A stretch of 64,000 nt of DNA. It comes from a bacterium. Its GTDB lineage: Bacteria; Patescibacteriota; Minisyncoccia; Sungbacterales; SURF-37. The notes under the pieces were generated by a model. The model ran no database searches. It saw nothing but the letters and a program-made list of their open reading frames with translations, and was not told where the DNA came from. The DNA lies in contig JAUSHI010000009.1 of NCBI GenBank assembly GCA_030648055.1, positions 47,722 through 111,721 of the forward strand, written 5' to 3'. Of the stretch, positions 10,539-28,469 are shown piece after piece (position 1 is the stretch's first letter; every line of letters starts with the position of its first letter). Position numbers and translations under genes: made by a program.

Positions 10539-10991
10539 ATGATATGGTATCTTAAAAAACGAGGAGTGTCCTTTTTAGAAAAGCAGGTGACCTGTGAAGA
10601 AAAAGAGATTGCCGCCGCACTTAAAAGATATTTTTCCATACTTAATACGCATGATTTAGATGGGCTTAGTGATATTCTGGCTGAAGATGCCGAGATGCAT
10701 TCGTATGCCGCCGGCAATCGTATGGTTGGGAAAGACGAGTTTATAAAAATTGTGAAAAAAATATTTCAAGGTGTTCGGCCGATTTATATGGAAAATACAA
10801 TGATAAGAATTGTCGGCGAATCGGCAATCGTCAATACGCTGTACTTACTACATTCTCATGGCCACGCATACGGTCCACAAAGAACACAGTTTGAATTTAA
10901 AAAAGAAAATGGTGGTTGGAAATTACATACACAGCTTTTTCTTGATCAGAATGTCTCCGGTAGCACCCCGTCAAAGCAAGATGTTACCTAA
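10539..10991 (+). CDS. SnoaL-like / NTF2-fold protein
   Basis: ALKRYFSILNTHDLDGLSDILAEDAEMH is typical of SnoaL/NTF2-like (DUF4440) domains. Confidence 0.5.
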   Translation: MIWYLKKRGVSFLEKQVTCEEKEIAAALKRYFSILNTHDLDGLSDILAEDAEMHSYAAGNRMVGKDEFIKIVKKIFQGVRPIYMENTMIRIVGESAIVNTLYLLHSHGHAYGPQRTQFEFKKENGGWKLHTQLFLDQNVSGSTPSKQDVT

Positions 10992-11027
10992 AAGTTAAAA
11001 GTAATATATCTAAAATTTATATTTTGT

Positions 11028-12047
11028 ATGGAAAAACCACACCGCTACGATAATAAAGAAGATATTTTATCGCAGCTAGACGCTTTATTAAAAAATGATT
11101 ATTTGGTGGTACAAATAGGGTTTGCTTTGGAGCGAATAGGTTTTTTTAAATTATTAGAGGAGCGGGGTAAAATCAATTTTAAAGAAATTGTTGAACTATT
11201 AAAAGTGCGAGAAGATTATTTAAGGGTGTGTACGGATTTTTTATGGGCGGCATCAAGTATTCTTGAAAGAGACAAGGATTTTTTTTCTTTGAAATATAAA
11301 ACCGTTGGACGAGGATTGTGGTGGTTGGCGGCGTATAAGCCGGTTCTTGATAATTTGGCCGGGCTTCTTACCGGAGAAAAATTATACGGCCGTGACGTAA
11401 AGCGAATCGGTCATTATCTCCAAAAAGCGTCGGATTTATCAAATCAGGATGCCGCAGATAAGGCTTTGTATTTATTAAGAAACGAAGGCGGCATTTTGGT
11501 AGATATGGGATGCGGGTCTGCCCATACACTAATTACATATTGCCAGGAAAAAGCAGGGCGCTATGGGGTCGGCATTGATGTAGATCCGGAAACTGTGCAA
11601 GAGGCGCGGCGGCACGTGAAAGGCGCGGCGCTGGAAGGATCCATTAGTATAGTTGAAAGCGATGCGTTTGAAGTTGAGAGATGGAGGGACGCAGTTCTTA
11701 AAAAACAGAAGGTTTTATTTTTGTTAAACACCGTTCTGCATGAATTTTTTCGGAACGGCGACGAAGCTGTGGCGGGCTTTTTACAGGAACTGAAAAAAGA
11801 ATTTCAAGATTCTAAATTGATTATTATTGAATTTGATGCCTGGGAGTTCAGCAAAATTAAAGAAGAGAAAGACAGAAATAAGGCCGCAGCTTTTTATGCG
11901 GCCAGATATCAATTAGTTCATCCTTTAACCGATCAGGGCATGCCACGGTCGCGTAAGGAGTGGGAAGATGTGATTAAAAAAGGGGGCTGGCAAGTAAAAG
12001 ATATTATACCCGCAGAATATAATTTGGTCATTTATAATTGCGCATAA
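11028..12047 (+). CDS. Class I SAM-dependent O-methyltransferase with N-terminal winged-helix dimerisation domain
   Basis: Motif I VDMGCGSAH, preceded by about 130 aa resembling the dimerisation domain of small-molecule O-MTs. Confidence 0.65.
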   Translation: MEKPHRYDNKEDILSQLDALLKNDYLVVQIGFALERIGFFKLLEERGKINFKEIVELLKVREDYLRVCTDFLWAASSILERDKDFFSLKYKTVGRGLWWLAAYKPVLDNLAGLLTGEKLYGRDVKRIGHYLQKASDLSNQDAADKALYLLRNEGGILVDMGCGSAHTLITYCQEKAGRYGVGIDVDPETVQEARRHVKGAALEGSISIVESDAFEVERWRDAVLKKQKVLFLLNTVLHEFFRNGDEAVAGFLQELKKEFQDSKLIIIEFDAWEFSKIKEEKDRNKAAAFYAARYQLVHPLTDQGMPRSRKEWEDVIKKGGWQVKDIIPAEYNLVIYNCA

Positions 12048-12102
12048 TATACCAAGATTATAGCGGGCCCGCGATGGGTTTTTTGGCATAGTGATGACTT
12101 TT

Positions 12103-13401
12103 CTATAGCGACTCATCAACATATGGAACAGTTTTGCCGTGGTTTGTAAGATTTGGCAGATAGCTCACAATTTTTATATCGGTTATAATATTACAGTCAT
12201 CTTTTAGTTGTCTTTTTAAAGATTCTAACTTGTTTGGCGGGACTTTTCCGTTGGCAATAATCCTTAATTCCAGGCGCCCGGATGTTATTCTGGCTAACTG
12301 GTATTGCACGATGAATCTGTCAAAATTATTTATTACGCCACTTATCTCAAGTAGCGTGATATGATTTTGACCGATATTAAGTGCGATTCCATCGCGGCCG
12401 TTGATAAAAAGCCTTTTTGACCGTACGCCGCAACGGCACCGTTTTTTCAGGATGACGCCGATATCACCTGTTTTATATCTGATGAAGGGCATAATCCGGT
12501 TATAAAAGTGAGTGAGCACTACATGGCCACTTTCTCCGTTAGCAACGGCACCCCCAGCATTATTAATTATTTCAACAATGAATGATTCCTCATTAATATG
12601 AAATCCTTTGTGCTCGGCGCATTCCATTCCAACCGGACCGAATTCCTCCAAACCGTACAGGTCATAGACACCCCCCTTGTTGCTCAGAATATTTTCAATA
12701 AAATATCGCTGGCCGTAAGATAAATTTTCTCCGTAAGATATTATGTAAGGAATTTTAATTGGTTGTACGCCAACACCAGCTTCTGCCATTGTACGCCCGA
12801 CCTCGGCCAATATCGTCGGAACACTTTCTAAAATAAAAGGCTGGAATGTTCCCAGCTTACTAATGACAGATCGGGCATTTTTTCTGACGTCCGAAACCGG
12901 AATAAATAAATAATTTTTTTTCAGCGGCATCGGCCGGAATCCTATGTGGGCGACTTTTAGCGCATCCATATTTTTATTGAATCCTTCCCAAAACAGAAAT
13001 CTGTATTTCGTAAAATCGTAATATCGTTTATCACCATAAACAGCGCTGACTAGGGTAATTGGGAACCGAAATGGTTCTCCAGTGGTGCCCGATGTCTGGC
13101 GCCATATGTATTTTCCTTGGTAATTCCAGTTTAGCAACAGGTTCCGGTCTTGCTGCTTTAGCGTTCTTTTGTCCATGATCGGGAGAATATCTATATCGTT
13201 GCGCGTTTTTATGCTGTCGGGATTTATTTTTGATTCTTTAAGTATGCGCGTGTAAAAAGGGACACCATCGTACGCAATTCCCAATAGTTTTTTTAGTTGA
13301 TGCGATTGCCACGCGTACACAATCGGCGAGGGGAGCTGATGTATAATGCTCCAGGCAGAAAATTTTATTTTGTTGTTTAAATTTTTTAGAAGCTGAATCA
13401 T
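12103..13401 (-). CDS. PaaK/CapK-like adenylate-forming enzyme (phenylacetate-CoA ligase / F390 synthetase family), paralog 1
   Basis: Adenylation motif TSGTTGEP and a length of about 430 aa. Confidence 0.75.
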   Translation of the reverse strand: MIQLLKNLNNKIKFSAWSIIHQLPSPIVYAWQSHQLKKLLGIAYDGVPFYTRILKESKINPDSIKTRNDIDILPIMDKRTLKQQDRNLLLNWNYQGKYIWRQTSGTTGEPFRFPITLVSAVYGDKRYYDFTKYRFLFWEGFNKNMDALKVAHIGFRPMPLKKNYLFIPVSDVRKNARSVISKLGTFQPFILESVPTILAEVGRTMAEAGVGVQPIKIPYIISYGENLSYGQRYFIENILSNKGGVYDLYGLEEFGPVGMECAEHKGFHINEESFIVEIINNAGGAVANGESGHVVLTHFYNRIMPFIRYKTGDIGVILKKRCRCGVRSKRLFINGRDGIALNIGQNHITLLEISGVINNFDRFIVQYQLARITSGRLELRIIANGKVPPNKLESLKRQLKDDCNIITDIKIVSYLPNLTNHGKTVPYVDESL

Positions 13402-13413
13402 GGAGGCCGTCGT

Positions 13414-14391
13414 TTAATTGTTGGTACTTGTCATGAGATTTAATATTTCCCGAATAAAATCTTCTTTTTGCGGAAGAGCGTACTTGCCGAAGCCATAAGG
13501 AATAGGAACATTTGCGGCCCCCAATTTTATAATTTTTATATCTGGACACGAACTCCGCGCGATATTTTCTATAATCGGGTAAAGTCCTCCTCCGGCCAGC
13601 GGTTCTTCGTCGGCAATAAGCAGCCTTTTTGTTTTACGGGAAGTTTCTTTTATTTTTTCTGTATCAAGGGGTTTAAGGCTGACTAAATCTAAGATTTCCA
13701 CATCTACGCCTTGTGTTTTCAGTTCGTCAGCGGCACTCTCCGCCATATCCGTCATTTGCGCGTGGGTTATTATTGTTACATCTTTGCCGGTTCTTCTGTA
13801 CTCTGCTTTTCCGGACGGGTATTTATAATCGGCATCGGTGGGTTGGCCTAATTTTTTATATAAACCCCAGTGTTCAAGAAAAATAATGACCTTACCCGTT
13901 GAAGTAAAGGCCGTGCGCAAAAGTCCTTGTGCCTGCTGCACTGTGCTCGGCGATATAATCACTACTCCAAGAAAATTAAAAAATTGGGAAATGAAAGGAA
14001 TGGAAAGTTGTCCGCCCACCTTGCCGCCCCCCCAACGCACTCTTATGATTGTTGATGGCATGGTTGTGCGCGTGCACATCATGCTCCATATTCCCGATAA
14101 GAAAATATCAGAAGCGGCAATGGTAATAAGCGTGCCGTGGGCAAACTCTACTATTGGACGAAGTCCCGCTTGCGCGGCCCCCAGAGCAATGCCTACAAAA
14201 AGCTCTTCATTGATAGGCGTTTCTCGTATTCGTTCTTCACCAAATTCATCAATGAATCCTTTGGTAATGCCGTCTCTTCCCCCCCATTTTCCTATGTCCT
14301 CTCCCATTATGAAAAGGCGAGAGTCCTTTCTCATCTCATCATGGAGGACTTCTTTGATTGCCTCGGATATTGTGATGTTATTTGTTGACAT
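13414..14391 (-). CDS. TPP-dependent dehydrogenase E1 component, beta subunit-like (transketolase-like C-terminal fold)
   Basis: E1-beta pattern (MGEDIGKWGG...ETPINEELFVGIALGAAQAGLRPIVEF) over 325 aa. Confidence 0.8.
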   Translation of the reverse strand: MSTNNITISEAIKEVLHDEMRKDSRLFIMGEDIGKWGGRDGITKGFIDEFGEERIRETPINEELFVGIALGAAQAGLRPIVEFAHGTLITIAASDIFLSGIWSMMCTRTTMPSTIIRVRWGGGKVGGQLSIPFISQFFNFLGVVIISPSTVQQAQGLLRTAFTSTGKVIIFLEHWGLYKKLGQPTDADYKYPSGKAEYRRTGKDVTIITHAQMTDMAESAADELKTQGVDVEILDLVSLKPLDTEKIKETSRKTKRLLIADEEPLAGGGLYPIIENIARSSCPDIKIIKLGAANVPIPYGFGKYALPQKEDFIREILNLMTSTNN

Positions 14392-15463
14392 CGGAGTTTT
14401 CCATTAATAGTTCATCTTTAGATAACTCTTTTTGCGCACGCGCCTGGTCAAGGGCCTCTTGTACTTCACGTTCTGCCTTTTTTTCCAATACAGAAAGAGA
14501 AGCTTCGTCGGCAATATTATGTGCAATAATTTTTTTTCGCGTTGAAAGAACGGGGTCTGTCTGCTCTTTGTTGGCGGTGTCCAGAAAATTATTATCCAAC
14601 GTGTCCGACATAAAAAAAGCTTCGTGTGGTACACGCCTATAAGTTTTTATTTCTAAAAAAGCCGGAGCAGATTCGTGTCTTGTTTTTTCAAACATTTTTT
14701 TTGCTACAGGGAAAACTTTAAATAAGTCATCACCCTCGACGCAGTCGGAAAATAAGCCGATTGATCTCGCCTTTTCAAAATATGGCCTGGCGGTAAGACG
14801 AGACAGCGGTGTTGTTACGGAAAGCTGATTATTTTCGCATACCCAAATAATCGGCAATTTCCAAAGCACAGAAAGATTAAGCGCGCTGTATAATGTTCCT
14901 CGAGAGGCCGCACCGTCTCCGAAGAATATGGCAACGACACGGTCGTCATTAAAAAATCTTGCCGCCACACCCATGCCGACTGCGATTGAAAAACCGTTTC
15001 CCAGCATGCCCCCCTGGGGGAAAACGCCATATTGCGGTAACATAAAATTTATAGGTGAGACGCCTTTACCCATGCAAACGCCAGTTTTTTTACCCAAAAT
15101 TTCTGCGGCGATAGCTCTTAACGGAACACCCTTACTTAGTGCCACAGCAAAACCTCTATAGTAAGGAAGCAGAAAGTCTTTATTCTCTAAAAGTCCGCCA
15201 ACGGCGGCCTGTCCGGCTTCTTGCCCTCTTCCTTCGAAAAAACTTCTTTTTAGGAGCATATTTTTATCAGCCAGCTCCTTGACTTTTATTTCCAAAATTC
15301 TTGCCGTGACCATATGTTCCCACATTTTTAACACTGCTGCCCCTAATTCCGTATTTTTTTTTAAAAAACTATCGTTAAAAAGCGCAGTCTCGTCGTTGTT
15401 GCCATGGTTGCCCCCCCTTTTTTCTTCTGGTAGTGTCATAATATCGGGTTGGTTTATGCGCAA
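14378..15463 (-). CDS. TPP-dependent dehydrogenase E1 component, alpha subunit-like
   Basis: TPP motif FFGDGAASRGTLYSALNLSVLWKLPIIWVCENNQ. It overlaps the beta-subunit gene by 14 nt, consistent with translational coupling. Confidence 0.8.
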   Translation of the reverse strand: MRINQPDIMTLPEEKRGGNHGNNDETALFNDSFLKKNTELGAAVLKMWEHMVTARILEIKVKELADKNMLLKRSFFEGRGQEAGQAAVGGLLENKDFLLPYYRGFAVALSKGVPLRAIAAEILGKKTGVCMGKGVSPINFMLPQYGVFPQGGMLGNGFSIAVGMGVAARFFNDDRVVAIFFGDGAASRGTLYSALNLSVLWKLPIIWVCENNQLSVTTPLSRLTARPYFEKARSIGLFSDCVEGDDLFKVFPVAKKMFEKTRHESAPAFLEIKTYRRVPHEAFFMSDTLDNNFLDTANKEQTDPVLSTRKKIIAHNIADEASLSVLEKKAEREVQEALDQARAQKELSKDELLMENSDVNK

Positions 15464-15498
15464 ACCCCTAAATAATTTATAGAAACAACTATATAATT

Positions 15499-16245
15499 AT
15501 GTTTTTAGCAGATTCTTTAAAATATATTTCGGCCGATTTTTATGAAAAGACTGTTGGTACGCCGCTGGAAAAAAAATCAATAATGAGGGTTGCGCAAATT
15601 GTGCGGGCCAGGGCGCTTGAAGGAAGCAAAAAAAACGTTCTTGACATAGGTTGTGGAAGCGGTGTGCTCGCCGTAGAATTGGCCGACATTAAAACAATAG
15701 AATATATCGGTATAGATATCAATGAAGGGTTTATAAAGAGGGCTCGGGAGCGATTAAATTCTCATCATAATTTTACCTTTTTCGTAGAGGATATAGCGCG
15801 ATATTGCCCGAATCTTAAATTTGATATAATTATTCTTTGCGGCACCTATCATCATATTCCGGACGAGCATAAAGCCGTTGTGCTACGGCGGGTTGCAAGC
15901 GTTCTTGCGGAAAGAGGCATCGTGGTTTTATATGAAAAATTGCTTGCTCCGTATTCCACAAAAAAAGAGTTTATTTCCGCAAATAGGATTTTTTATAGAA
16001 AAAGATTTGCTGCTCAATTTCTCGCCGGAGAAATAGGACCCCGGCATCTATTGGCCCTTCTAAAAATAGGTTTAGGGGATATATCTGCGTTTCAGGAATA
16101 TAAGATTGATTATCAGCGCCTCATCTCATATTTTTTTTCGCACGGGCTTGTACCTGTTGAAGAACACAAGATCTGGCCAGCAAGAAATTTATTCAAAAAA
16201 AATAATATCGGCGATTTTATTTTTGTATTTGCACATGGAAATTAA
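15499..16245 (+). CDS. Class I SAM-dependent methyltransferase
   Basis: Motif I VLDIGCGSGVLAVELA. Confidence 0.7.
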   Translation: MFLADSLKYISADFYEKTVGTPLEKKSIMRVAQIVRARALEGSKKNVLDIGCGSGVLAVELADIKTIEYIGIDINEGFIKRARERLNSHHNFTFFVEDIARYCPNLKFDIIILCGTYHHIPDEHKAVVLRRVASVLAERGIVVLYEKLLAPYSTKKEFISANRIFYRKRFAAQFLAGEIGPRHLLALLKIGLGDISAFQEYKIDYQRLISYFFSHGLVPVEEHKIWPARNLFKKNNIGDFIFVFAHGN

Positions 16246-17008
16246 ATTTCATAATAAAATAATACTAGTTACCGGATCAACGCGTGGTATCGGGAAAGAA
16301 ATTGCCCGAGCATTTGGAGAGGCCGGGGGCAACATCATTATTAATTCCAGGCGGGAAGAGGCGGTTGAGGATACGGTAGATGAATTTAGAAAGTCCGGTT
16401 ATCAGGCTGTCGGTTACGCCGCGGATGTCGGCAGTTGGGATTCGGTTAAAAAACTCATGGAATTTATAGGAGCGACACACAAACGTCTGGATGTGATCGT
16501 TAATAATGCGGGAATCAGTTTTCCTTTGGCGGGCGTTAGTGAAATGGCGGTGGAAGATTGGGATAATATCTTGAAGACAAATCTTAGCGGTCCGTTCTTT
16601 GTCGCTAAAGCGGGGCTTCCACTCATGCAGTATGCCGGTGGAGGAAGTATAATTAATATAGGTTCCATGGCTTATCTCCTACAGATAGGATCGCCTAATC
16701 CAGCATATAGCGCCGCTAAGGGCGGATTAGTTTCTCTTACCAAAGCTTTGGTTAAGGATTGCTCGCCTCATAAAATTCGCGTAAATGCGATCAGTCCCTG
16801 GTATGTAAAAAATGATAAATTTGATGATATTTTTAAAAAAGCAGGAATTGACCAGAATTATGCGGCCGAACGGAATCCATTAGGCAGGACCGCTTTACCG
16901 GCAGATATTTCCAGTTTGGCGTTATTTCTGGCTTCAGACCACGCGTCGTTTATTAGCGGTCAAGTAATTCATGTTAGCGGAGCGGCAGAGGTTTTGATTA
17001 GAAAATAA
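16235..17008 (+). CDS. Short-chain dehydrogenase/reductase (SDR)
   Basis: VTGSTRGIGKEIA glycine motif and SDR topology over about 257 aa. The start is taken at the internal ATG 16235, which overlaps the upstream stop. Confidence 0.8.
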   Translation: MEIKFHNKIILVTGSTRGIGKEIARAFGEAGGNIIINSRREEAVEDTVDEFRKSGYQAVGYAADVGSWDSVKKLMEFIGATHKRLDVIVNNAGISFPLAGVSEMAVEDWDNILKTNLSGPFFVAKAGLPLMQYAGGGSIINIGSMAYLLQIGSPNPAYSAAKGGLVSLTKALVKDCSPHKIRVNAISPWYVKNDKFDDIFKKAGIDQNYAAERNPLGRTALPADISSLALFLASDHASFISGQVIHVSGAAEVLIRK

Positions 17009-17039
17009 TTTTTATAAAATCTTTTGGAGTTATTATAGT

Positions 17040-18140
17040 TTGATTAATAATGCCATGGAAGACGTAAAAATTTTGCTTGCATTATTGCGGGTGATAATAG
17101 GACGGGATTATTTTTTCCCCACAAGCAAAACAATAAAAAATTTTGAAACCGCTTTTGCAACGCTAGTCAGTTCTGCACACGCATTCGGTGTTTCTAACGG
17201 AACTGATGCGCTAATAATGGCTCTGAAGGCCTGCGGTATACAGGCGGGTGATGAAGTAATTGTCCCGGCTTCAGGTTTCATTGCAACCGCCTCGTGTGCC
17301 GCATGGATCGGCGCGAGGCCGGTATTTGTAGATATTGATTTCCGCACTTTTAATATTAATCCCTCTCTTATAGAAAATTATATTACTATTAAAACAAAAG
17401 CAATTATTGTTACGCACCTCAATGGCAGAATGGCGGACATGGATAAAATTTCTGCTATTGCAAAAAAACATAACCTATTCCTTATAGAAGATGCGGCTCA
17501 GGCTGTAGGTTCAAAATACAGAGGGGAATCAGCGGGGCATTACGGGGACATGGCTTGTTTTAGCTTCAATCCGTCCAAGGCGTTAGCGGCTTATGGAGAC
17601 GGAGGGGCGGTGGTTACAAATAATATTTCTCTTGCGGAAAAAATATCGTTAATGAGAACATACGGCGCCCGTTTTAAGGAAATTTCCGCCCACCATAAAA
17701 TTATAGGCGTAGCGAGCCGTTTGGGGGCGTTGCAGGCCGCTATATTATTGATTAAACTTGAAAATATTTCCTCTGTTATTGAGGCATGGAGACATAATTA
17801 TTTTCTTTATTTTGAGGCGCTTCGCGGTGTTGGTGATTTGATTCTTCCGGAAGTGAGCGATGATTTTTTTATCAACGGTTATCGTTTTGTGGTGCTTACA
17901 AAAAAGAGAAACGATTTACAGCAGTTTTTAAGAAAGAACGGCGTAAATAGTCATATCCAGTACGGAGTTTCAATCCCGTATTTTGAAGCTTTTTCTTATC
18001 TTCAACATAAAAGGGGGGAGTTTCCAGAAAGCGAACGGGTGGCATTCGAAAGCATTGTTCTTCCAACTGCTCCTATTTTTCGAGAAAATGATATTTATCG
18101 CGCAGTGGCGCTTATAAAAAAGTTTTTTGCGAATTTGTAA
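17040..18140 (+). CDS. DegT/DnrJ/EryC1/StrS family PLP-dependent sugar aminotransferase
   Basis: Fold-type I AT pattern with SFNPSKALAAYGDGGAVVTNN (PLP Lys). Confidence 0.85.
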   Translation: MINNAMEDVKILLALLRVIIGRDYFFPTSKTIKNFETAFATLVSSAHAFGVSNGTDALIMALKACGIQAGDEVIVPASGFIATASCAAWIGARPVFVDIDFRTFNINPSLIENYITIKTKAIIVTHLNGRMADMDKISAIAKKHNLFLIEDAAQAVGSKYRGESAGHYGDMACFSFNPSKALAAYGDGGAVVTNNISLAEKISLMRTYGARFKEISAHHKIIGVASRLGALQAAILLIKLENISSVIEAWRHNYFLYFEALRGVGDLILPEVSDDFFINGYRFVVLTKKRNDLQQFLRKNGVNSHIQYGVSIPYFEAFSYLQHKRGEFPESERVAFESIVLPTAPIFRENDIYRAVALIKKFFANL

Positions 18141-18206
18141 AGAATTATTGAGAAGGCGAAATCGGGATCGGTTATACATTTTTTAATTTGACGGTAAAAA
18201 TAAAAG

Positions 18207-19115
18207 ATGATATCAATACATATCAAGCCAAGGTTCTTTAAAACCAAAGGAGCGGCAAAAATGGGAAGTACTCATGGGTTTAATGGGAGTCGGGAAGATG
18301 TTCTAAGAATATGGGAAAAAAATTCGGAAGGGTGGTTTTCTGTCGGTTCTCCTTGGAGGCCGTCCGCCGGCGATGTAAGAGTATATCAAAAATTGTGCGG
18401 TTCAAGGATTAACGGCAGAGTGCTGATTCTTGGTTCTACTTCGGAATTGCGCGAGCTTGTAGCATCGCAACATAATAGTCCGGTTTTGGTAGACATTAGT
18501 TTCGCAATGCTTCAAAAAATGAGTCAGTCATTAACGCATGGCGACCAGGCAAATGAAATATGGATCAAATCTGATTGGTGTGAGGCGCCCCTACGGTCAA
18601 ATTACTTTGATCTTATTATCGGCGATATGGTATGGTGGGTTGTTTCGGTAGATTCACAGTTTAGACTGCGTGACAAAATAGCGGACCTTCTTGCCCCGGA
18701 CGGCATATTTGTTTCACGTTTTCGTCTGATAGGGGCGGGCAACGGACAGCACAATCCGCGCGGAGTGGTAAAGGAGTATTTGGCGAAGTACGAAGCAAAC
18801 CCTGAAAATGAAATTTTGTTGCGGAATGCCATGATGTCGCGGCTTTATGACAGTACTGCCGATGTCGGAACGAAACGTCTTAATCGCGAGAGAGCAAAAG
18901 TGATTTTGTCGGAGGTTTCGGATGGTCTGGATAATTCCAGGCACCGCGCTTTTCTTTCTGCGGCCTCAGAAAGACTTTTGAGCGCTGATTGGACAGCCCA
19001 GACGAGAGAAGAGATTTTTTCCATTTTAGCGGATAAGTTTGAGCTTTTTTCAGAGATGCACGCAACTGATTATGAGTCAGAATATTATCCAATAGTTTCA
19101 TTTAAGAAAAAATGA
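18207..19115 (+). CDS. Hypothetical protein with a methyltransferase-like Rossmann fold and a degenerate SAM loop
   Basis: VLILGSTSE replaces GxGxG. Post-I (LVDIS) and motif III-like (LLAPDGIFV) elements are present. Confidence 0.35.
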   Translation: MISIHIKPRFFKTKGAAKMGSTHGFNGSREDVLRIWEKNSEGWFSVGSPWRPSAGDVRVYQKLCGSRINGRVLILGSTSELRELVASQHNSPVLVDISFAMLQKMSQSLTHGDQANEIWIKSDWCEAPLRSNYFDLIIGDMVWWVVSVDSQFRLRDKIADLLAPDGIFVSRFRLIGAGNGQHNPRGVVKEYLAKYEANPENEILLRNAMMSRLYDSTADVGTKRLNRERAKVILSEVSDGLDNSRHRAFLSAASERLLSADWTAQTREEIFSILADKFELFSEMHATDYESEYYPIVSFKKK

Positions 19116-20485
19116 GCTTAAAGTGGTTTGCTAAAAAAATTATAATTTCAGCTCCTTTTTCTGTGGAGTATTCTTCGGAATATGTTCCATCTATTATCAA
19201 ATCAACCGCCAAAAGGGTTGATTTTTTATTGCAAAATTGGGCCTTGACCCAATCTGATTCTTTTTCCGGGGAAGAATGGCGTAAAATTCAGCTTATTAAA
19301 CTGAAGAAATTGTTGATTCATGCCAGAGAGGGTGTGCCTTCTTGGGATGATCTTTTTAAAAAGATCGGTTTTATTCCAGAAAAATTTGAACGATTTGAAG
19401 ACTTGCGACACATTCCGGTGATTACCCGCGCCGATATAAAAAAAATCCCGATTGAAGCTCTTACTGCCAAAAACATTCCTCGCTGGCGTTTTAAAGAAGC
19501 AGTGACATCGGGTTCTACAGGAGAGCCGCTGAAATTTTTTCAAGACCTCCGCGATAACTTACGGCGAGAGGTAAACACCTTTCATGAATTAAGATACGCT
19601 GGTGTTTCTTATCGCGATAATATAGTGGTATTGGATTTGGATAAGCATAATGATTTGAACAATTTCGGCAAGCGATTCAGCAGTATTGAGTGGGGCGACA
19701 GCAAATTCAGGCAATCCGTCATTTACCCTTATCTGAAATTAAAGCCGGCGGTGCTTATCGCCAACGGAAGCAATTTGAGAAGATTTTTATTTTTAATCCG
19801 GCAGGAAGCTCCAGACACAATTTTTAAAACTTTAATGTACCGGGGCGAGCACATAAGCAAGTCGGAGCGTAATAATATTTCCCGATTTTTTAAATGTCCA
19901 ATTTTTACCTGTTACGGCAGTCGGGAAACTTCACTTTTAGGAATTGAATGCGAATATCACAAATTACATTTAGCGCCGTGGATGAGTTATTTTGAAGTTG
20001 TATCGGACAGCGAACAAACCGTCCCCGAAGGCGATGAAGGCAATGTGGTTGTAACTTTTTTTGAAAATTTTGTTATGCCGTTTATGAGGTATAAAATTGG
20101 CGATAGGGCGATAATAAATACCGAATCGTGTTCTTGCGGCCGAAAATCAAAAACAATTAATTTTTTTGGGCGGGAGTCGGAATTTATTAAATTTCCGGAT
20201 TCCAATAAAAGCTTATCAATTCTTAGTTTGACGCGTCGCGTCGATGAAAATTATTGTAATAGTATTGGGCAGTATCAGTTTGAATTGATAGGCGAAAGGC
20301 TGATAGTATTTCGTTACGTTCCAGTTTCAGCAGTAAATGAAACGGAAAAGAATAATTTAAGCGGTTTGCTGGAAAAGGCTTTGGGGCATCAGTTTCGCAT
20401 TGTGCTGGAAGAAGTGGCGGCAATAAATCCATTAGCCGACGGCAAAACCCCAATTTTAATAAGAAATAAGCCGCGCAATTTGTAA
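19112..20485 (+). CDS. PaaK/CapK-like adenylate-forming enzyme, paralog 2
   Basis: TSGSTGEP motif. The overall architecture is collinear with the 12103..13401 product. Confidence 0.75.
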   Translation: MSLKWFAKKIIISAPFSVEYSSEYVPSIIKSTAKRVDFLLQNWALTQSDSFSGEEWRKIQLIKLKKLLIHAREGVPSWDDLFKKIGFIPEKFERFEDLRHIPVITRADIKKIPIEALTAKNIPRWRFKEAVTSGSTGEPLKFFQDLRDNLRREVNTFHELRYAGVSYRDNIVVLDLDKHNDLNNFGKRFSSIEWGDSKFRQSVIYPYLKLKPAVLIANGSNLRRFLFLIRQEAPDTIFKTLMYRGEHISKSERNNISRFFKCPIFTCYGSRETSLLGIECEYHKLHLAPWMSYFEVVSDSEQTVPEGDEGNVVVTFFENFVMPFMRYKIGDRAIINTESCSCGRKSKTINFFGRESEFIKFPDSNKSLSILSLTRRVDENYCNSIGQYQFELIGERLIVFRYVPVSAVNETEKNNLSGLLEKALGHQFRIVLEEVAAINPLADGKTPILIRNKPRNL

Positions 20486-20684
20486 CGCCATGAATGAATT
20501 ATTTCTAAAACTAAAAATTATCAACGCCTTGGCCAGAATTGTCTTGAAGGGGGAAAATACCGGAGATTTTATGTTAGGCAAGCCGGTCCAGATTTTTGAA
20601 CGATCTTTATTTGATTAAGTTTTAATCCCACGAGAACGAGTGTCTCATCCTTCTGACTAATTATTTATTAACAAAAGAAAATAT

Positions 20685-21658
20685 ATGTCAATAGCAGGAC
20701 CTCAATACTCCATAGTTATTCCAACTTATAATCGCGCCAAAACTCTCGCTTTAACCCTAAATTCTGTTTGCCAACAAACCCTTTCGCCTGAAAAATATGA
20801 GATCTTGGTGGTTGATGACGGATCATCGGATAACACTAAAGAAGTTGTTTTACATATCCAAAAAAATATTCTCACTGCGGTATCCTTTATTTCCATGAAC
20901 AAACCGGCGGTCCCGCTAAGGCCAGGAACTTGGGCATCAAAGAATCCAAAGGCGAAATTATATTTTTTACCGATGACGACTGCATAGTGCCGCCGGACTG
21001 GATGGCAACGCTTTTAGACGGATATAAGAGACATACGGAGGTTGTCGGGGTGGGGGGATGGCATATACCGCCGGATGGAGAACTTGAAAAAAGCGCTACC
21101 TCGCGATATACCCATTATGAAAGTTTTTATCACGACCGTTTTAACCAATCTCTTATATTTTATGAGGTTTTGACTAATAATCCTGTTATGTTTTTTGGAA
21201 CTTTCGCTTATAACACGGCGAATATATGCTATAAAAAGGAAATATTGCGAAAGGTCGGCGGTTTCAAAGAAGATTTTTACTGGCCCGGAAGCGAAGATAA
21301 CGACCTTGCCTTTAGAGTCGCGCAAGCCGGGTACTGTCTGCTTTATCTGCCATTTAATGTAATCCATTCAAAAGCCATGAATTTGTTAGAATTTATGAAA
21401 CTCCATTTCCGCCGAGGGGCCAATGGTTACTTTTTGCGTACTATGCATGTTGATATTCTCAAAAAACAAAACCCCGGATTTATTAAAGATTATGGTTCGA
21501 TAAAATATTTTATCCATCATCTCAATGGTCCGGAAAAGTTTTTGGCATTTTTGGAATGGCTTAGTTTAAACGCTGGCATTATGTATATGAAAAATAAATT
21601 AACCGAACGCGACAAGCCAGTACTTTCCAAACCAGAGGAAAAAATTAGTAACGATTGA
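20685..21658 (+). pseudogene. GT2 family glycosyltransferase, interrupted by a -1 frameshift at an A7 tract (~20859-20865)
   Basis: ORF 20685..20987 carries IVIPTYNRAKTL...LVVDDGSSDNT. The next frame carries FHEQTGGPAKARNLGIKESKGEIIFFTDDDC. Changing A7 to A8 fuses them into one intact GT2. Confidence 0.6.
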
Positions 21659-22720
21659 AACAAAAGAAAAGCGGACCATGTCCGGAATGGACTTTGAAAA
21701 TAAAGGCGGTTGGCTTCTGCTTGTAAAAATAATTTTGGAATCGTTTATGGTCCGTTTTAAAAAAAATAAAAAATCTGGGTTTTGGCGAATATCCGGATGC
21801 AGTAAATATAGAAAATGCCAATCTAAGCCCTGAAGAAGGCACTTTTTTATGTGAATGCCAAGCGAAAAATCCGCGAAATGCTTTACCATTTTCGGTTCGT
21901 ATAAAAGTTTTAATCCTAATTTACGCGCTCTTATTTTAAATTCCATAAAGCCGACATGCTTAAAATACGGATTGAATCCGCCCAACTTTTCAAAAATTTC
22001 TCTACGGTAGCAAACATTGGCGGTTAAGCCGCATTGATTATTTAGAATATCAAAGTTTTTTGTGCGAACATGCGTGCGGTAAAAATGCTTCCACATTGTA
22101 AACCGGTGATAAATATCAAGGGGGGGTTTTATCGGCCAAGGTTCTTTAAATCCGCCGACTCCGGCGATTTCCGGGTTGGCTTCCAGTTCTCGCTTGAATT
22201 CAAAAAGCCAGTCTGGCGGGACAATACAGTCGTCGTCGGTAAAGGCGAGCAAATTTCCCTGCGAATTTAAAACGGCGACATTTCGCGCTAAATCGGCGCC
22301 GTAATTTTTTTTTAATTTGATATAAACCATACTCGTCTGTCTATTTTGATCCGCAAAATCCTCCACCGCTTTTTCGGTCTTATCTTTTGAACCGTTATCA
22401 ATTATTACTATCTCAAATTCATCCAAAGAAATATTCTTCTGCCCTATTACGGCGTTAACGGTTTTTAAAAGCAGGTCGCGGCGATTATAAGTTGGAACGA
22501 TTATACTAAATAGAACAACGTTTTTTTTATTAGAGCCGAATTTTGTGACATTCTCAATGTAAGAAGTATAATCATCGCGCAAAAAATTGTTATCCTCGGG
22601 AGGAGTTTCCCCGTAAAAAAATTCAATCAGTTCACGATAGGAGGTATTGTCCTGCTCTATACGACAAATAATGCGCAGAGTTTTTAAAAAATTAGACGAC
22701 ATGTTGATAATAACTTTCAT
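21599..22720 (-). CDS. GT2 family glycosyltransferase
   Basis: FSIIVPTYNRRDLL...VIIDNGSKDKT and ...FTDDDCIVPPDW. There is an N-terminal extension of about 65 aa. Confidence 0.8.
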   Translation of the reverse strand: MKVIINMSSNFLKTLRIICRIEQDNTSYRELIEFFYGETPPEDNNFLRDDYTSYIENVTKFGSNKKNVVLFSIIVPTYNRRDLLLKTVNAVIGQKNISLDEFEIVIIDNGSKDKTEKAVEDFADQNRQTSMVYIKLKKNYGADLARNVAVLNSQGNLLAFTDDDCIVPPDWLFEFKRELEANPEIAGVGGFKEPWPIKPPLDIYHRFTMWKHFYRTHVRTKNFDILNNQCGLTANVCYRREIFEKLGGFNPYFKHVGFMEFKIRARKLGLKLLYEPKMVKHFADFSLGIHIKKCLLQGLDWHFLYLLHPDIRQNPDFLFFLKRTINDSKIIFTSRSQPPLFSKSIPDMVRFSFVSIVTNFFLWFGKYWLVAFG

Positions 22721-23567
22721 AATCTTCTTTTAATCCTGAAAATAAAGGTTGAAATTTTAATCCCAGCGCTTTAATTTTGCTGTTGTCGCATATCATATTT
22801 TCATTGGCAAAAGGGAACTCTTCTTTGTCAAAATTTTTTCCGGCGGCAGGCGGATTGAACCGCAAAACTGGATCCTTACCGGAGATTTTTCCCATCATCT
22901 TCACCAAATCAATAAGTGTTATTGTTTCGTCTCCGGCGCAGTTAAATGCGCCGACAGCGCGTTTTTCCGCAATCGCCGCGATTGCTTCGGCTACTTCTTC
23001 GGCAAACACAAATTGAATTTTGGCTTGACCATCGCCTGGTAAAATAAGCGGCCGGTTATTTTGAATTCGTGTATAGATAAAGCGTTCGCGGTTCTGATAA
23101 TTTTTTGGTCCTAAAATATAGACCGGACGAAACGAGGCATATTTTATTCCGCTTTCTTCAAGAACTTTTTCGCACCCAGCCTTGCCCCTGCCGTAGTTGC
23201 CCCAAATCGGCCAATCGCCTACGGGAGAAAGTTCGGTTAATGGAAACAAATGGGGTTTTTTATAAACCGCGGCGGTGCTAAAATGTAAAAAGAAGTCAAA
23301 ACGCAATTCCCGTATAGCGTTTTCGGTTTGCGCTTCGCTGTAAGCGCACATATCTATCACTGTATCAAAGCGCTCTTTCAGATTGTATCCTCTGTTTCTG
23401 TCACCTGTTACAAAACGCGCTTTCGCCGGATATTCTAACTGTATCAATCCGCGATTAAATATAGTTAAATTATGTCCGCGGTTTAACAGAAGTTCTACGA
23501 GATAGGGCCCCACAAAACGCGAGCCGCCGATTATTAAAATATTTTGCTTGTCAGGAGAGGTCATCAT
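22692..23567 (-). CDS. NAD-dependent epimerase/dehydratase (extended SDR)
   Basis: ILIIGGSRFVGPYLVELLLNRGH Rossmann motif. Confidence 0.8.
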   Translation of the reverse strand: MMTSPDKQNILIIGGSRFVGPYLVELLLNRGHNLTIFNRGLIQLEYPAKARFVTGDRNRGYNLKERFDTVIDMCAYSEAQTENAIRELRFDFFLHFSTAAVYKKPHLFPLTELSPVGDWPIWGNYGRGKAGCEKVLEESGIKYASFRPVYILGPKNYQNRERFIYTRIQNNRPLILPGDGQAKIQFVFAEEVAEAIAAIAEKRAVGAFNCAGDETITLIDLVKMMGKISGKDPVLRFNPPAAGKNFDKEEFPFANENMICDNSKIKALGLKFQPLFSGLKEDYESYYQHVV

Positions 23568-23694: not shown

Positions 23695-25149
23695 GTGAAA
23701 AACCTTTTTAATTCTCTTAAGTTTATTTTTAGAGCGTTTCTTTTAGTTATTATCTTACTGTTTGGCTGGGCGTTTATTAATGTCGCCAATTTAATCAAGG
23801 GCAAAAAAACGCCGGACAAAGATTCTTTGTCCGCCAACCCGTTTGGGGCGGATGAAGCAAGGGCTGACACTCCGGGAGGAGGGGGTTTTTCTTCTTGCCC
23901 TTTTCTCGCTTGTTTTAATGGAAAAGAATACAAATTAGAAAATGATATTCTTTTTGGAAGACCAAAGAGCTACTGGCCTACATACGAAACAGCCAAAGCC
24001 ATGTACGAAGATGGCCGTATAAGCCCCGATCTTTACAAAATCACCAGCCCAATAAGGCCCCATAATAATAAATTGCTTTTTCAAATTCAGGAAATAGAAC
24101 CGGAAGAAAGTTTCTTTAAGCAACTTCGTTTAAAAAGAGTTTTACATCCCCAAAATACGGAAGTCATCGTGGACTCTGAATTTAAGAAGTATTACGTTCT
24201 CCCCCAAACCGAATTTCTAAAAAGCATTATTCTTCCATCGCTTGTAAAAAATGCTGATAAAAAAGATGTGGCGGTAAGTTTTAGTTTAGGCCGGGTCTTT
24301 GTAAGCGATACGGAAGGGGACGATGGAATTAAATTTCAAAAAAACGAAGAGTTTTATTTTTATTTTAAAGACCTAAATCCTAAAGAGACTTCCCATCTTT
24401 TACTGTCTTCATTTAATCGTGACTGGCAGTTAGGATATCAAGAAGAATGGGTTGCCAACCCCCAGTTTAATATTCGCGCACTTATTAGCCGTTTAGATTT
24501 TGCGCGTGTTGGGGTCGGAGTCGCGTTACTAATTGGTGCTTGGATATCGGGAAAATGGGGTTCTGTTGCGACCGCTGCGGTATTGAGCCCTTTTTTTATC
24601 GGAGCAGGGCAAGCGGGTTGCTCATTTATAATTGAATATAAAGATAGGGACGAAACCTATTCAAGAGTAGCGGTTACTGAAGCAAGGGCATGGAAATACA
24701 ATACGGAAATTATTGAAATTCCTCGGGACAGTATTACGCCAAGTGGTGAGCTTGAGTTAAGAATAAAGTCGTCAAAAAGACATGTTCTTGGTTTCGCTGG
24801 GATATCTCAAAAAATAGAGTCGCTTAATAATAAAAATTATCAAGAAGAAATATTACCGTTAATTACAGCCGAGCATAGTAGATTACGAAAAGACGTTTCG
24901 GGCGACCTTAAGAGTAGAGAGGGATCGTATGTTCATACAATACCGGGCGATACGATTAATCTTGAGTTTAGTGTTCCGGAAAGTTTGGTTTCCGATGAAA
25001 ACAAGGAAACATATCTTATTCAGTCATCCGGTTTTTACACATCCCTTAGGCCGGAAAATATGAAGCTCGCCGGCAATTGGAAAGAAAAAATCTCTCAAGA
25101 GGCAAAAGAACGTCTTGAAAAACTTGTTTCGCTAAGTTCTTATAAATAA
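23695..25149 (+). CDS. Hypothetical membrane/extracytoplasmic protein (N-terminal TM plus an internal hydrophobic segment), unknown function
   Basis: GTG start, TM helix FLLVIILLFGWAFINVANLI. No recognisable catalytic motifs. Confidence 0.4.
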   Translation: MKNLFNSLKFIFRAFLLVIILLFGWAFINVANLIKGKKTPDKDSLSANPFGADEARADTPGGGGFSSCPFLACFNGKEYKLENDILFGRPKSYWPTYETAKAMYEDGRISPDLYKITSPIRPHNNKLLFQIQEIEPEESFFKQLRLKRVLHPQNTEVIVDSEFKKYYVLPQTEFLKSIILPSLVKNADKKDVAVSFSLGRVFVSDTEGDDGIKFQKNEEFYFYFKDLNPKETSHLLLSSFNRDWQLGYQEEWVANPQFNIRALISRLDFARVGVGVALLIGAWISGKWGSVATAAVLSPFFIGAGQAGCSFIIEYKDRDETYSRVAVTEARAWKYNTEIIEIPRDSITPSGELELRIKSSKRHVLGFAGISQKIESLNNKNYQEEILPLITAEHSRLRKDVSGDLKSREGSYVHTIPGDTINLEFSVPESLVSDENKETYLIQSSGFYTSLRPENMKLAGNWKEKISQEAKERLEKLVSLSSYK

Positions 25150-25174
25150 ATTTATTTTTAGTTTAGATATTGCT

Positions 25175-26251
25175 ATGAAAGAATGGCTAATAAATAAAAA
25201 GTTTATTGTAATTTTAGTAGCTTTAGCGGTTTTGTTTTTGGCCGCTTTTTGGGGGGCGCGCTTTGCCGCTTCTTATTATTACGAAAAAGGCGCGGGGATG
25301 TTTTTACAAAATAATTTTGAAGCTGCTAAAAGTAACTTTACCACGTCTTTAATATTTAATTCTAAAAATCCCAAAACCCATTATTTTCTCGGGAAAATAG
25401 CTTTAGGCCCGCCAGTACCCAGACAACTTGTTTACCATCCTCGGGCCGATTATAAAGAAGCGGTTAAACATTACGACAAAGCGATGTTATTCGGTCTTGA
25501 GCAAAAAAACCAGAATTTATATAAAGTCGCTCTTGATGATTTAGGCAACGCGTATTGGAATTTAAATGAGCTGGACAAGGCGCGCGAAAAATATTCTGAA
25601 AAATTATCAAAATTTCCAGAATCATCTTTTTGGGCGAGGTATTTTATCGCGTGGGACGACTTTTACCGTCTTAACAAGCCAGAAGAGGCTTTAGAAATAT
25701 TGCCGACCACTTTAAGTATTACAATGTCAGACAACGATAGATGGAATCTTTTTAGAATTCATGTGCTTTTATCTCGTCTCAATTTATATTTTGGCAATTA
25801 CGCCAACGCCATAAAATACGCCAAATTGGTTATTGAAAATGTTGAGCCCGAAAACAAATATGAAGGAATTCAGGCCGCTCATGCGCTTTTAGCAGTTGAT
25901 TATGGCCGCCAGAAAAATTTTTCTTTAGCCGAAGGCGAAGTAAAAAAGGCCAACGATTTAGCTGGAGTGATCGGCGCTTACAATTGTTCTCTCGCAGTGG
26001 CTTATATCAGCGGTGAAAATTATCTCAAAGCAATTTTAATAGCCGAAAAAACGGATAAGACCGCTCTGACTTATATAAATTCTCTCTGTATTCAGTCTTT
26101 GGCTATTTCTTATTTAGCGAAAGGCGACAAAATTAACGCCAAGAAGTATCTTGAAGAGTATTTGAATTTTACTGAAAAATTATCGGAAAAAAATATTTTT
26201 GTAATGCGCAATCGCCAACAATTTTCTGACGAGCTTTTGAAATTAAAATGA
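25175..26251 (+). CDS. Membrane-anchored TPR-repeat protein
   Basis: N-terminal TM followed by multiple TPR-like helix pairs (AxxxYxxAl...). Confidence 0.6.
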   Translation: MKEWLINKKFIVILVALAVLFLAAFWGARFAASYYYEKGAGMFLQNNFEAAKSNFTTSLIFNSKNPKTHYFLGKIALGPPVPRQLVYHPRADYKEAVKHYDKAMLFGLEQKNQNLYKVALDDLGNAYWNLNELDKAREKYSEKLSKFPESSFWARYFIAWDDFYRLNKPEEALEILPTTLSITMSDNDRWNLFRIHVLLSRLNLYFGNYANAIKYAKLVIENVEPENKYEGIQAAHALLAVDYGRQKNFSLAEGEVKKANDLAGVIGAYNCSLAVAYISGENYLKAILIAEKTDKTALTYINSLCIQSLAISYLAKGDKINAKKYLEEYLNFTEKLSEKNIFVMRNRQQFSDELLKLK

Positions 26252-27039: not shown

Positions 27040-27116
27040 AATAAATTGTGTGAATAAATTAATTGTGGTTTACCCGCTATTTAATATATGATAGTTATAT
27101 GAGCTTTAATTTTAAA

Positions 27117-27890: not shown

Positions 27891-28469
27891 ATGGGACGAG
27901 GTAAAGATATAAAACCCAGATTGGGCCCAGTGATGCAGAAAATATTGCTACTCTTGGCCGGAGGTTCTGCGCTCGGGCTTTCTCGGAGGCCCGATACTTA
28001 TTTTCGAATTCTCAGAGGCATCACAAAGGAATGGCGGGCAATAGAACGGCGGCGCCTTCACGAGGCAATAAGAAATCTTTATAGTTCACAGTTGGTTGAC
28101 TGCCGAGAGCATCCCGATGGCACGGCCTCTTTGGTGTTGACCAATAGTGGTAAGGAGCGAGTGCTACATTATGATCCCGAGGCGATAAAAATAAAGCGCC
28201 CTAAACGGTGGGATGGTTTGTGGCGGGTTGTTATGTTTGATATTCCCGAGCTCCAGAAACGAGCGCGCGACGCGCTTTCATTTAAATTAAGACAGATCGG
28301 TTTTTATCCAATGCAAAAGAGCGTGTTTGTACATCCGTACGATTGTAAAGATGAAATAGATTTTCTTATTGAATTCCATCAGGTTAGACCGCACGTGAGA
28401 TTTTTATTGGTAAAAGAAACTGACATCGATTTGAAACTAAAACAGCATTTTCACATTAATATGTTATGA
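27891..28469 (+). CDS. PaaX-like putative transcriptional regulator (N-terminal wHTH-like plus PaaX C-terminal domain)
   Basis: MQKILLLLAG...LVLTNSGKERVL resembles the PaaX N-domain. The C-terminal VVMFDIPE...QKSVFVHP segment is PaaX-C-like. Confidence 0.4.
   Translation: MGRGKDIKPRLGPVMQKILLLLAGGSALGLSRRPDTYFRILRGITKEWRAIERRRLHEAIRNLYSSQLVDCREHPDGTASLVLTNSGKERVLHYDPEAIKIKRPKRWDGLWRVVMFDIPELQKRARDALSFKLRQIGFYPMQKSVFVHPYDCKDEIDFLIEFHQVRPHVRFLLVKETDIDLKLKQHFHINML

Follow-up and report, generated by a model that had tools for sequence, protein, structure and literature searches.

Several separately encoded E1alpha/E1beta pairs have been linked to the building of carbon branches on sugars. KbDH-alpha/beta of kibdelomycin is reported to couple pyruvate to ketones in vitro (PMC12247030); the sugar-branching enzyme of aldgamycin is supported by feeding and knock-outs (PMC12247030); and AviB1/B2 and Pau11/12 are proposed E1alpha/beta sugar-branching cases (PMC4753412). 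The acetyl branch at C-3 or C-4 is later reduced, methylated, oxidised or transaminated (PMC12247030). For erwiniose, the aldolase ErwI supplies the donor, the carboligase ErwE follows, and then a reductase (PMC9306805). In another kind of glycan tailoring, the PaaK/CapK-like protein VpsH is required, on genetic evidence, for the glycine amide on GulNAcA of the Vibrio polysaccharide VPS, at a lipid-linked intermediate (PMC13463779). Genes resembling both kinds of enzyme lie together at positions 10539-23567 of the 64-kb stretch of DNA analysed here (the window), in a locus that includes an E1alpha/E1beta pair and two PaaK/CapK-like ligases.

The likeness of this locus to the alphaKADH2 systems (KbDH, AlmDI/DII, AviB1/B2 and Pau11/12) is drawn from gene content and not from sequence. 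Its E1alpha and E1beta are separate genes with a thiamine diphosphate (ThDP) motif and an activating glutamate, no E2 or E3 accompanies them, they are found in a sugar-tailoring cluster, and the short-chain dehydrogenase/reductase (SDR), DegT aminotransferase and methyltransferases of the window are the follow-up chemistries reported for acetyl branches. The locus differs in its apparent host, a member of the candidate phyla radiation (CPR), in its likely target, an envelope polymer, and in a MrsA-like C-methyltransferase (in related locus L032, an aldolase), which suggests donors other than pyruvate. The enzyme kinds are all known; what is new is the combination of modules, their spread in CPR and DPANN genomes as a shuffled, tRNA-adjacent locus of low guanine-plus-cytosine (GC) content, and a coherent clade of E1 enzymes without a conserved histidine.

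The locus is very probably an island for tailoring a glycopolymer. The fuller explanation, in which a low-GC, horizontally variable island consisting of two modules and a transferase pair tailors a cell-envelope glycopolymer (teichoic-acid-like or glycan), is put forward tentatively, with a chance that falls just short of even.

Profile searches (Pfam and NCBIfam), sequence searches of the PDB and motifs read from the translations identified 13 genes in four transcription units, listed in order of transcription:

Unit 1
10539-10991, plus strand, SnoaL/NTF2-like small protein, 150 amino acids (aa) (SnoaL_3 39.4 bits, DUF4440 32.8 bits)
11028-12047, plus strand, class I S-adenosylmethionine (SAM) methyltransferase with N-terminal helical domain, distantly MrsA/MppJ/ApyS-like, 339 aa
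Unit 2
14378-15439, minus strand, E1alpha, 353 aa (Pfam E1_dh 163.4 bits), overlapping E1beta by 14 nt
13414-14391, minus strand, E1beta, 325 aa (Pfam Transket_pyr 65.8 bits, Transketolase_C 74 bits)
12103-13401, minus strand, LigA, PaaK/CapK-like adenylate-forming enzyme, 432 aa (NCBIfam DVU1553-type ligase 123.9 bits, PaaK 96.9 bits)
Unit 3
15499-16245, plus strand, MT248, class I SAM methyltransferase, 248 aa (Methyltransf_25 68.9 bits), divergent from E1alpha
16235-17008 (coordinates corrected), plus strand, classical FabG-like SDR, 257 aa (adh_short_C2 190.4 bits)
17040-18140, plus strand, DegT/DnrJ/EryC1 aminotransferase dependent on pyridoxal phosphate (PLP), 366 aa (Pfam 311.7 bits against a gathering threshold of 19.8)
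18261-19115, plus strand, MT302 family, class I methyltransferase fold with helical insert, 284 aa (284/302) (Methyltransf_11 25.9 bits)
19112-20485, plus strand, LigB, PaaK/CapK-like adenylate-forming enzyme, 457 aa (NCBIfam 109.1 bits, below cut-off)
20685-21658, plus strand, family 2 glycosyltransferase (GT2) in two frames, with a Pfam GT2 match on both fragments and a -1 frameshift in the A7 run at 20860-20866
Unit 4
22692-23567, minus strand, Epi, extended-SDR epimerase/reductase-like protein, 291 aa (Pfam Epimerase 69.4 bits)
21599-22720, minus strand, intact GT2, 373 aa (Glycos_transf_2 101.1 bits; best NCBIfam match EpsD-like, 104 bits, below cut-off)

The catalytic signatures of DegT, the SDR, E1alpha and the GT2 (DDD) are intact. 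An earlier note on this DNA had assigned the same gene classes to the same positions, and all of them are present; its interpretation, an accessory locus for a branched, aminated and methylated sugar, is supported in part. That it is an accessory tailoring locus of lower GC is supported by the composition of the genes: mean GC is 0.405 and mean GC at third codon positions (GC3) 0.380 in the island, against 0.474 and 0.474 in 26 flanking genes (Mann-Whitney p ~1e-7).

The E1alpha/beta pair

Translation of E1alpha starts at M9, which gives the 353-aa protein and an exact match to a database protein; a 361-aa form beginning at a TTG start has no exact database match and was set aside. E1alpha scores 200.5 bits on its NCBIfam model (cut-off 393.85) and E1beta 199.8 bits (cut-off 321), so that neither reaches the cut-off for an E1 of pyruvate dehydrogenase (PDH), branched-chain 2-oxoacid dehydrogenase (BCKDH) or acetoin dehydrogenase. 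The ThDP motif of E1alpha (GDGA...N) is intact, but RGFA (R-G-[FY]-A) takes the place of the canonical R[DG]HG[HQ], and the GHS loop has changed to PHEAFF. In E1beta the ThDP-activating Glu of TP.NEE is retained, and GGQLS is found where the E1beta of T. thermophilus has GGHHHSQ. The His of HSQ, which we take to be the proton donor from the beta subunit to the lipoyl dithiolane (as in the G. stearothermophilus and human E1), is also lost from all E1betas of the related loci, where the motif is G-x-E-L/I/M/F.

The extent of this loss was assessed in 150 E1beta representatives, the best among 1.84 billion proteins: 149 have the Glu and 126 the His, and 13 of the 20 best-scoring relatives have no HSQ His. 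In a neighbour-joining tree (297 columns, no bootstrap) of the 150 closest representatives, the window E1beta and all of the CPR-locus E1betas form one clade of 24 members, none of which has the His, against 120 of 127 outside it that do. Grouping with ordinary E1 subunits was the outcome that the earlier note had set against its own proposal; the window protein and the locus E1betas instead form their own His-less clade. The note had also described the pair as standing alone, and tblastn with AceF and Lpd of E. coli gave no hit below E = 1 in the 64 kb of the window; 29 related loci (L001-L029) likewise gave none.

With the ThDP motif and activating Glu retained, the HSQ His lost, the R-x-H-G motif of E1alpha replaced, and no E2 or E3 in the window or the related loci searched, the pair appears to be an active ThDP enzyme that is not built to pass acyl groups to a lipoyl-E2. 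We consider it probable that this is an E2-independent, non-dehydrogenase E1. That it performs a C-branching step on a sugar, by analogy with alphaKADH2 enzymes, is a possibility held with less than even confidence.

Close relatives of the pair are few: only three E1alpha proteins exceed 37% identity (49, 41 and 38%), and all three belong to syntenic loci that repeat SDR-E1alpha-E1beta, a PaaK-like ligase, DegT, a MT302-like protein, a MrsA-like methyltransferase and small NTF2-like proteins. In every one of the eight E1-bearing loci, the pair is accompanied by other families of the set. Two loci, L015 (4434-6453 and 11301-12828) and L020 (513-2277 and 7122-8952), each contain two separate His-less E1alpha/beta pairs; these double-E1 loci also carry two DegT genes, a PLP enzyme resembling serine hydroxymethyltransferase (SHMT), and YcaO.

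Modules in related loci

In metagenome genomes of CPR bacteria and DPANN archaea, the families of the window are found again at 26-68% identity. A scan of a genome collection with the MT302 family gave 25 loci, mostly from CPR metagenome-assembled genomes (MAGs labelled Saccharibacteria, Sung-, Giovannoni-, Moran- and Kaiserbacteria) and DPANN archaea; close MT302 orthologues added three long loci, and a further His-less E1beta added one. Over 32 loci, MT302 is present in 23, PaaK-like ligases in 14, DegT in 11, the SDR in eight, E1alpha and E1beta in eight, and the MrsA-like methyltransferase in five. Synteny is modular and is seen in independent genomes (L002-L005, L015, L020, L030-L032 and L034), so that the same families co-occur in a conserved neighbourhood and are not scattered, the other outcome that had been set against the earlier proposal. 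The locus is conserved but modular, mixed and matched across many CPR and some DPANN genomes.

Module A consists of MT302 followed by LigB (65-68% identical to the orthologues of L004, L005 and L030), together with DegT (56-58% in L005 and L030, 44% in L004) and usually the MrsA-like methyltransferase. It is constant among the closest loci L004, L005 and L030, and looser in L031 and L032. MT302 is the signature gene of the locus and is always followed by LigB. Its AlphaFold2 model (mean predicted confidence, pLDDT, 93.3) has a class I methyltransferase fold with an atypical motif I, LGSTxEL; the best Foldseek matches are generic small-molecule N-methyltransferases (TM score 0.5-0.6), a PDB sequence search gave no match, and no structural neighbour was informative. 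About 33 orthologues were found at 41-60% identity, mostly without a name, and those that are named come from CPR MAGs. Five to six tandem MT302 paralogues lie beside DegT in L018 (9989-17900, in the Saccharibacteria-labelled MAG CAZKRD010000002.1), which suggests diversification in the manner of a tailoring enzyme that sets specificity. Two Dactylosporangium genomes (L014 and L017, 10001-10558) also encode the N-terminal two-thirds of this fold, at 31-32% identity, in a neighbourhood that shares no other family with the window locus.

The DegT protein has its PLP lysine (SFNPSK), and its best PDB matches are aminotransferases of NDP-3-keto-sugars: QdtB (E 5e-75), DesV (2oga) and WbpE. The locus shares with the WbpB/WbpE and QdtB-type 3-amino-sugar pathways this nearest similarity of DegT and, in L003 and L032, a WbpB-like Gfo/Idh/MocA oxidoreductase; it differs in that the window has no Gfo/Idh/MocA gene, and neither a ketoisomerase nor an N-acetyltransferase was detected among the island genes. 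The 339-aa methyltransferase, with orthologues at 39-47% identity in L004, L005, L030 and L031, scores 87.7 bits on the 2-ketoarginine methyltransferase model (cut-off 425) and 65.2 bits on ApyS, and in the PDB it matches 2-ketoarginine methyltransferase (8r4z, E 7e-7) and MppJ (E 2e-4) over the methyltransferase core only. It is a distant relative of the alpha-keto-acid C-methyltransferases MrsA and MppJ and of ApyS, a methyltransferase of ribosomally synthesised and post-translationally modified peptides (RiPPs); the score is far below the equivalog cut-off, and the alpha-keto-acid substrate class is therefore a lead. The pairing of a SnoaL-like protein with a dimerisation-domain O-methyltransferase, as the earlier note had it, is established for the first gene only, the second being closest to C-methyltransferases and ApyS.

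Module B consists of E1alpha-E1beta, the SDR, a small NTF2-like protein and a LigA-type ligase; in the window MT248 also belongs to it. It is found in the window, L002, L003, L004, L015, L020, L031, L032 and L034 but not in L005 or L030. The SDR has intact TGxxxGIG and YSAAK (YxxxK) motifs and is translationally coupled to E1alpha in L002, L004 and L034; L002, L004 and L032 have a small NTF2-like or DUF4440 protein alongside the E1 pair; and a fragment 49% identical to MT248 occupies the same divergent position in L003. LigA directly follows E1beta in the window, L002 and L003, and LigA-type ligases are also beside E1 in L015, L020 and L032; the orthologues that adjoin E1beta in L002, L003 and L032 are 33-38% identical to LigA. 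In the two loci without E1alpha/beta, L005 (1701-4337) and L030 (6338-8938), two LigA-like PaaK domains are fused in a protein of 866-878 aa preceded by a GNAT acetyltransferase, which may be an alternative to module B. The fused homologue of L030 has a faint CapK_C match.

The two ligases are both PaaK/CapK-like, as had been noted, but they are not recent twins: they are 26% identical and belong to sub-families with different gene partners. Neither has a Pfam match, all NCBIfam scores of LigA are below cut-off, and the PaaK equivalog cut-off of 646.3 is not reached (LigA 96.9 bits, LigB 46.2 bits). The best PDB match of both is phenylacetate-CoA ligase 4r1l (LigA E 1.7e-23, LigB E 1.9e-16); no paa genes were seen in the window save a small PaaX_M-domain protein at 27891-28469. 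The NCBIfam models DdaG and BagE are also matched. Motifs are intact in LigA (TSGTTGEP, YGLEE, YKTGD, GRDG and the C-terminal GK) and in LigB (TSGSTGEP, YGSRE, YKIGD and GK), and intact adenylation motifs within a glycan locus are the features by which a CapK/VpsH-like ligase is recognised. Compared with VpsH and other CapK-like proteins, which are likewise PaaK-fold adenylate-forming proteins inside glycan loci, the locus differs in having two divergent ligases, each tied to its own module; the likeness is one of family. By the precedent of VpsH, LigA and LigB are more likely to be amide ligases than aryl- or acyl-CoA ligases, which weakens the earlier suggestion that they attach acyl or aryl groups.

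The third part of the locus is the transferase pair. L005, L030 and L031 have orthologues of the intact GT2, in each case paired with Epi, which is 51-59% identical to its counterparts in these loci and forms one operon with NTP_transferase in L031. Epi was described as an NAD-dependent epimerase/dehydratase, of which membership of the Epimerase family holds and the dehydratase part does not: the protein has STAAVY and YGRGK and no D-E dehydratase pair. A role as a 4,6-dehydratase was rejected on the STAAVY motif, found in place of STDEVYG, which we take to be the dehydratase motif.

The closest loci indicate what the pair may serve. In L005 and L030 the order is DegT-SDR-IspD-like cytidylyltransferase-Glyphos_transf (TagF-like)-GT2-Epi, the cytidylyltransferase scoring 122 bits on the ribitol-5-phosphate cytidylyltransferase model and 134 bits on IspD; in L031 it is Epi-NTP_transferase-GT2-Glyphos_transf/GT2; and L032 carries NTP_transferase-Glyphos_transf. 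Because these loci add IspD-type, TagF-like or NDP-sugar nucleotidyltransferase genes beside the same GT2-Epi pair, the theme appears to be a teichoic-acid-like glycopolymer, in keeping with the surface-glycan role put forward in the earlier note. TarI/TarJ/TarL systems share with L005 and L030-L032 an IspD-like or NTP transferase, an SDR and Glyphos_transf, which in these loci adjoin the common core; the window differs from them in having neither a cytidylyltransferase nor a TagF-like gene.

Proposed chemistry and rival explanations

From the gene content we infer substrates, an order of steps, a sugar as E1 acceptor and a surface polymer as target, as follows. DegT would aminate a nucleotide-linked sugar at a keto position, C-3 being the likeliest, the methyltransferase-fold proteins would methylate, and LigB, as an ATP-dependent CapK/VpsH-type enzyme, would join a carboxylate and the sugar amine as an amide. 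E1alpha/beta, as an enzyme of the alphaKADH2 kind, would decarboxylate a 2-oxoacid, either pyruvate or a pre-tailored donor; by analogy, such a donor could be pre-methylated by the MrsA-like C-methyltransferase, and in L032 it could be made by a BphI-type aldolase. The resulting acyl-anion equivalent would add to a carbonyl of the sugar intermediate and yield a C-acyl branch, which the SDR would reduce or an aminotransferase would aminate, with LigA then acylating it; LigA, like LigB, would thereby attach an amide-linked group. The GT2-Epi pair and the second GT2 would install the finished residue on the polymer. In L032, a 4-hydroxy-2-oxovalerate aldolase of the BphI type (264.7 bits, cut-off 229) adjoins E1beta/alpha and an SDR, a trio that mirrors the logic of the YerE/ErwE system of yersiniose and erwiniose, with its aldolase, carboligase and NAD(P)H reductase; YerE and ErwE differ in being single-chain members of the decarboxylase superfamily that act on CDP-4-keto-3,6-dideoxyglucose, a sugar whose genes are absent here.

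Several observations weigh against this reading. The 64-kb window contains no nucleotidyltransferase, cytidylyltransferase, TagF-like gene, Gfo/Idh/MocA gene or aldolase, and its annotated part showed no 4,6-dehydratase, ketoisomerase, flippase or initiating transferase, so that the sugar substrate must come from elsewhere. The known alphaKADH2 cases have NDP-hexose dehydratases and the window locus has none, leaving no gene there that marks a keto-sugar acceptor, and the characterised enzymes belong to actinomycete deoxysugar clusters and are reported to use two-carbon donors only (PMC12247030). L005 and L030, the two closest orthologous loci, have no E1alpha/beta, which is therefore an optional add-on; where present, it is tightly linked to LigA, a partner that sugar branching itself does not require. 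The window copy of the pathway may also be partly decayed, as its frameshifted GT2 and a relic of DegT indicate.

A somewhat unlikely alternative, which uses several of these same points, is that the locus builds a side chain. The E1 pair, SDR, SnoaL-like protein and methyltransferases would turn 2-oxoacids into a small branched product (a hydroxy-acid, hydroxy-ketone or amino-alcohol) through a condensation of the acetolactate or acyloin type and then reduction and methylation, and LigA would link the product as an amide to the DegT amino sugar or to a uronic acid. This would account for the tight linkage of E1beta and LigA and for the lack of keto-sugar-forming genes in the window; the relatives of the MrsA/MppJ-like methyltransferase act on free alpha-keto acids, the aldolase of L032 makes a free 2-oxoacid, and amide ligases are known in the PaaK family (VpsH, and the DdaG and BagE models matched). 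However, no characterised E1alpha/beta pair was found that makes a glycan N-acyl group, the documented E2-independent biosynthetic E1alpha/beta enzymes all branch sugars (PMC12247030), and in the ErwE type of pathway the same donor, made by an aldolase, serves to branch a sugar (PMC9306805).

It is doubtful, though compatible with the other readings, that the locus is the decaying remnant of a once-complete teichoic-acid-type locus that has lost its cytidylyltransferase, TagF-like genes and one GT2 and now makes no product. IspD, NTP_transferase and TagF are indeed missing, unlike in L005 and L030-L032, and there are two signs of damage. The first is the GT2 frameshift, which the earlier note had attributed to a homopolymer: adding one A to the A7 run restores a 324-aa open reading frame that is colinear end to end with the intact 358-aa GT2 of L005 (141 of 317 columns identical). 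The truncated N-terminal fragment has no exact database match and the Logan contig stops inside LigB; with no match in an independent assembly, the frameshift may be a mutation, phase variation or a sequencing error. The second is a 24-codon relic of the 3' end of DegT directly after LigB (20538-20609, plus strand), with 75% tblastn identity to the C-terminus of the L030 DegT. The order in L005 and L030 is MT302-LigB-DegT, and the intact DegT of the window is upstream of MT302; the relic stands where DegT sits in those loci and therefore marks a scar of rearrangement. Against wholesale decay, the other 12 genes are full length relative to their orthologues and keep their catalytic motifs, and phase variation or sequencing error could account for the A7 frameshift. 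What the window holds is the tailoring part alone, perhaps eroded to some degree.

It is improbable that the methyltransferases, ligases and GT2s tailor a peptide or pseudo-peptide in a small-molecule or RiPP pathway. A SagD-type YcaO (TIGR03604, 204.6 bits) and SagB (TIGR03605, 96.5 bits, above cut-off) adjoin MT302, PaaK-like, DegT and Epi genes in relatives, YcaO in eight and SagB in seven of the 32 loci (L030 18768-20855 and L031 17433-20625; also L002, L008, L009, L011, L015, L020 and L022), and the 339-aa methyltransferase matches ApyS weakly. Yet the window differs from thiazole/oxazole-modified microcin (TOMM) and linear azole-containing peptide (LAP) clusters in lacking YcaO, SagB and any recognisable precursor gene; its DegT is typical of the NDP-sugar aminotransferases; and the IspD-like, TagF-like, NTP_transferase and GT2-Epi genes of the closest loci point to glycopolymers. 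In L030 and L031, YcaO/SagB is transcribed divergently from Epi-GT2 and may therefore be no more than an adjacent cluster that shares this variable region.

It is very unlikely that the pair is a common catabolic E1 (of pyruvate, acetoin or branched-chain 2-oxoacid dehydrogenase) that happens to lie beside glycan genes, and this reading was rejected: although E1 subunits of PDH and BCKDH are its best matches in NCBIfam and the PDB, both scores are about half of the equivalog cut-offs, no E2 or E3 was found in the 64 kb or the related loci searched, the clade-wide loss of the HSQ His goes with a replaced R-x-H-G motif, and relatives always carry the pair within the same tailoring gene set.

Borders of the island and significance

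To the left of the island are housekeeping genes of the folD/SHMT type; to its right, the low GC of the island continues through the border genes (23695-27039), and a tRNA is followed by parA/parB, relA, topA and dprA. The features on the right are:

23695-25149, plus strand, 484-aa protein, membrane-anchored at its N-terminus and with a further hydrophobic stretch
25175-26251, plus strand, tetratricopeptide repeat (TPR) protein (Pfam TPR)
26248-27039, plus strand, TPR2, membrane-anchored TPR protein (Pfam TPR)
27063-27743, plus strand, Pro/Gly-rich 226-aa protein related to a 662-aa protein beside TPR2 in L002
27891-28469, small PaaX_M-domain protein
28517-28600, minus strand, tRNA-Leu(CAA) (ARAGORN; Rfam 56.6 bits), right edge of the low-GC island

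The 484-aa protein has no Pfam or NCBIfam match and no homologue in any related locus. It occupies the position where relatives carry YcaO/SagB; its size and position raised the idea of a divergent YcaO, which was rejected because there is no similarity at 1e-8, no family match, and an N-terminal membrane anchor. TPR2 has orthologues at 40-43% identity that border the locus in five MAGs of Parcubacteria type (Sung-, Giovannoni-, Moran- and Kaiserbacteria-type). With TPR2 orthologues and a relative of the 226-aa protein at the same border, the island occupies a conserved genomic position. Rfam identified only tRNA in the window. A tRNA-Leu at the edge of an island is a layout typical of an integration or recombination hot spot; no integrase was seen. 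The source names of the homologues and the synteny of TPR2 suggest that the window belongs to the CPR, and with this the reduced genome assumed in the earlier note.

Publications on F390-synthetase-like enzymes in archaeal glycans, Saccharibacteria teichoic acids and Patescibacteria YcaO clusters yielded nothing on this locus. A more far-reaching proposal, which we consider unlikely, is that the His-less clade represents unrecognised E2-independent carboligases centred on CPR and DPANN, which, with custom 2-oxoacid donors made by a MrsA-like C-methyltransferase or a BphI-like aldolase and with two CapK-type amide ligases, would produce a new class of C-branched, aminated and amide-decorated sugar or polyol in the envelope polymer of ultra-small episymbionts. 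The locus would then be a surface determinant that varies between strains and serves in attaching to hosts or evading phages, with the A7 run of the GT2 as a possible means of phase variation.

The His-less clade provides a simple sequence marker for E2-independent E1 enzymes and a further source of candidate carboligases, some of which may take donors other than pyruvate. Should the pair prove to be an ordinary alphaKADH2, a known enzyme class would be extended to a new phylum and to primary envelope biosynthesis. CPR/Patescibacteria live attached to hosts, and their surface chemistry is little known; because the locus is conserved yet shuffled, low in GC, tRNA-adjacent and endowed with rare chemistries, it is a candidate for strain-specific surface decoration that may govern host recognition or phage resistance.

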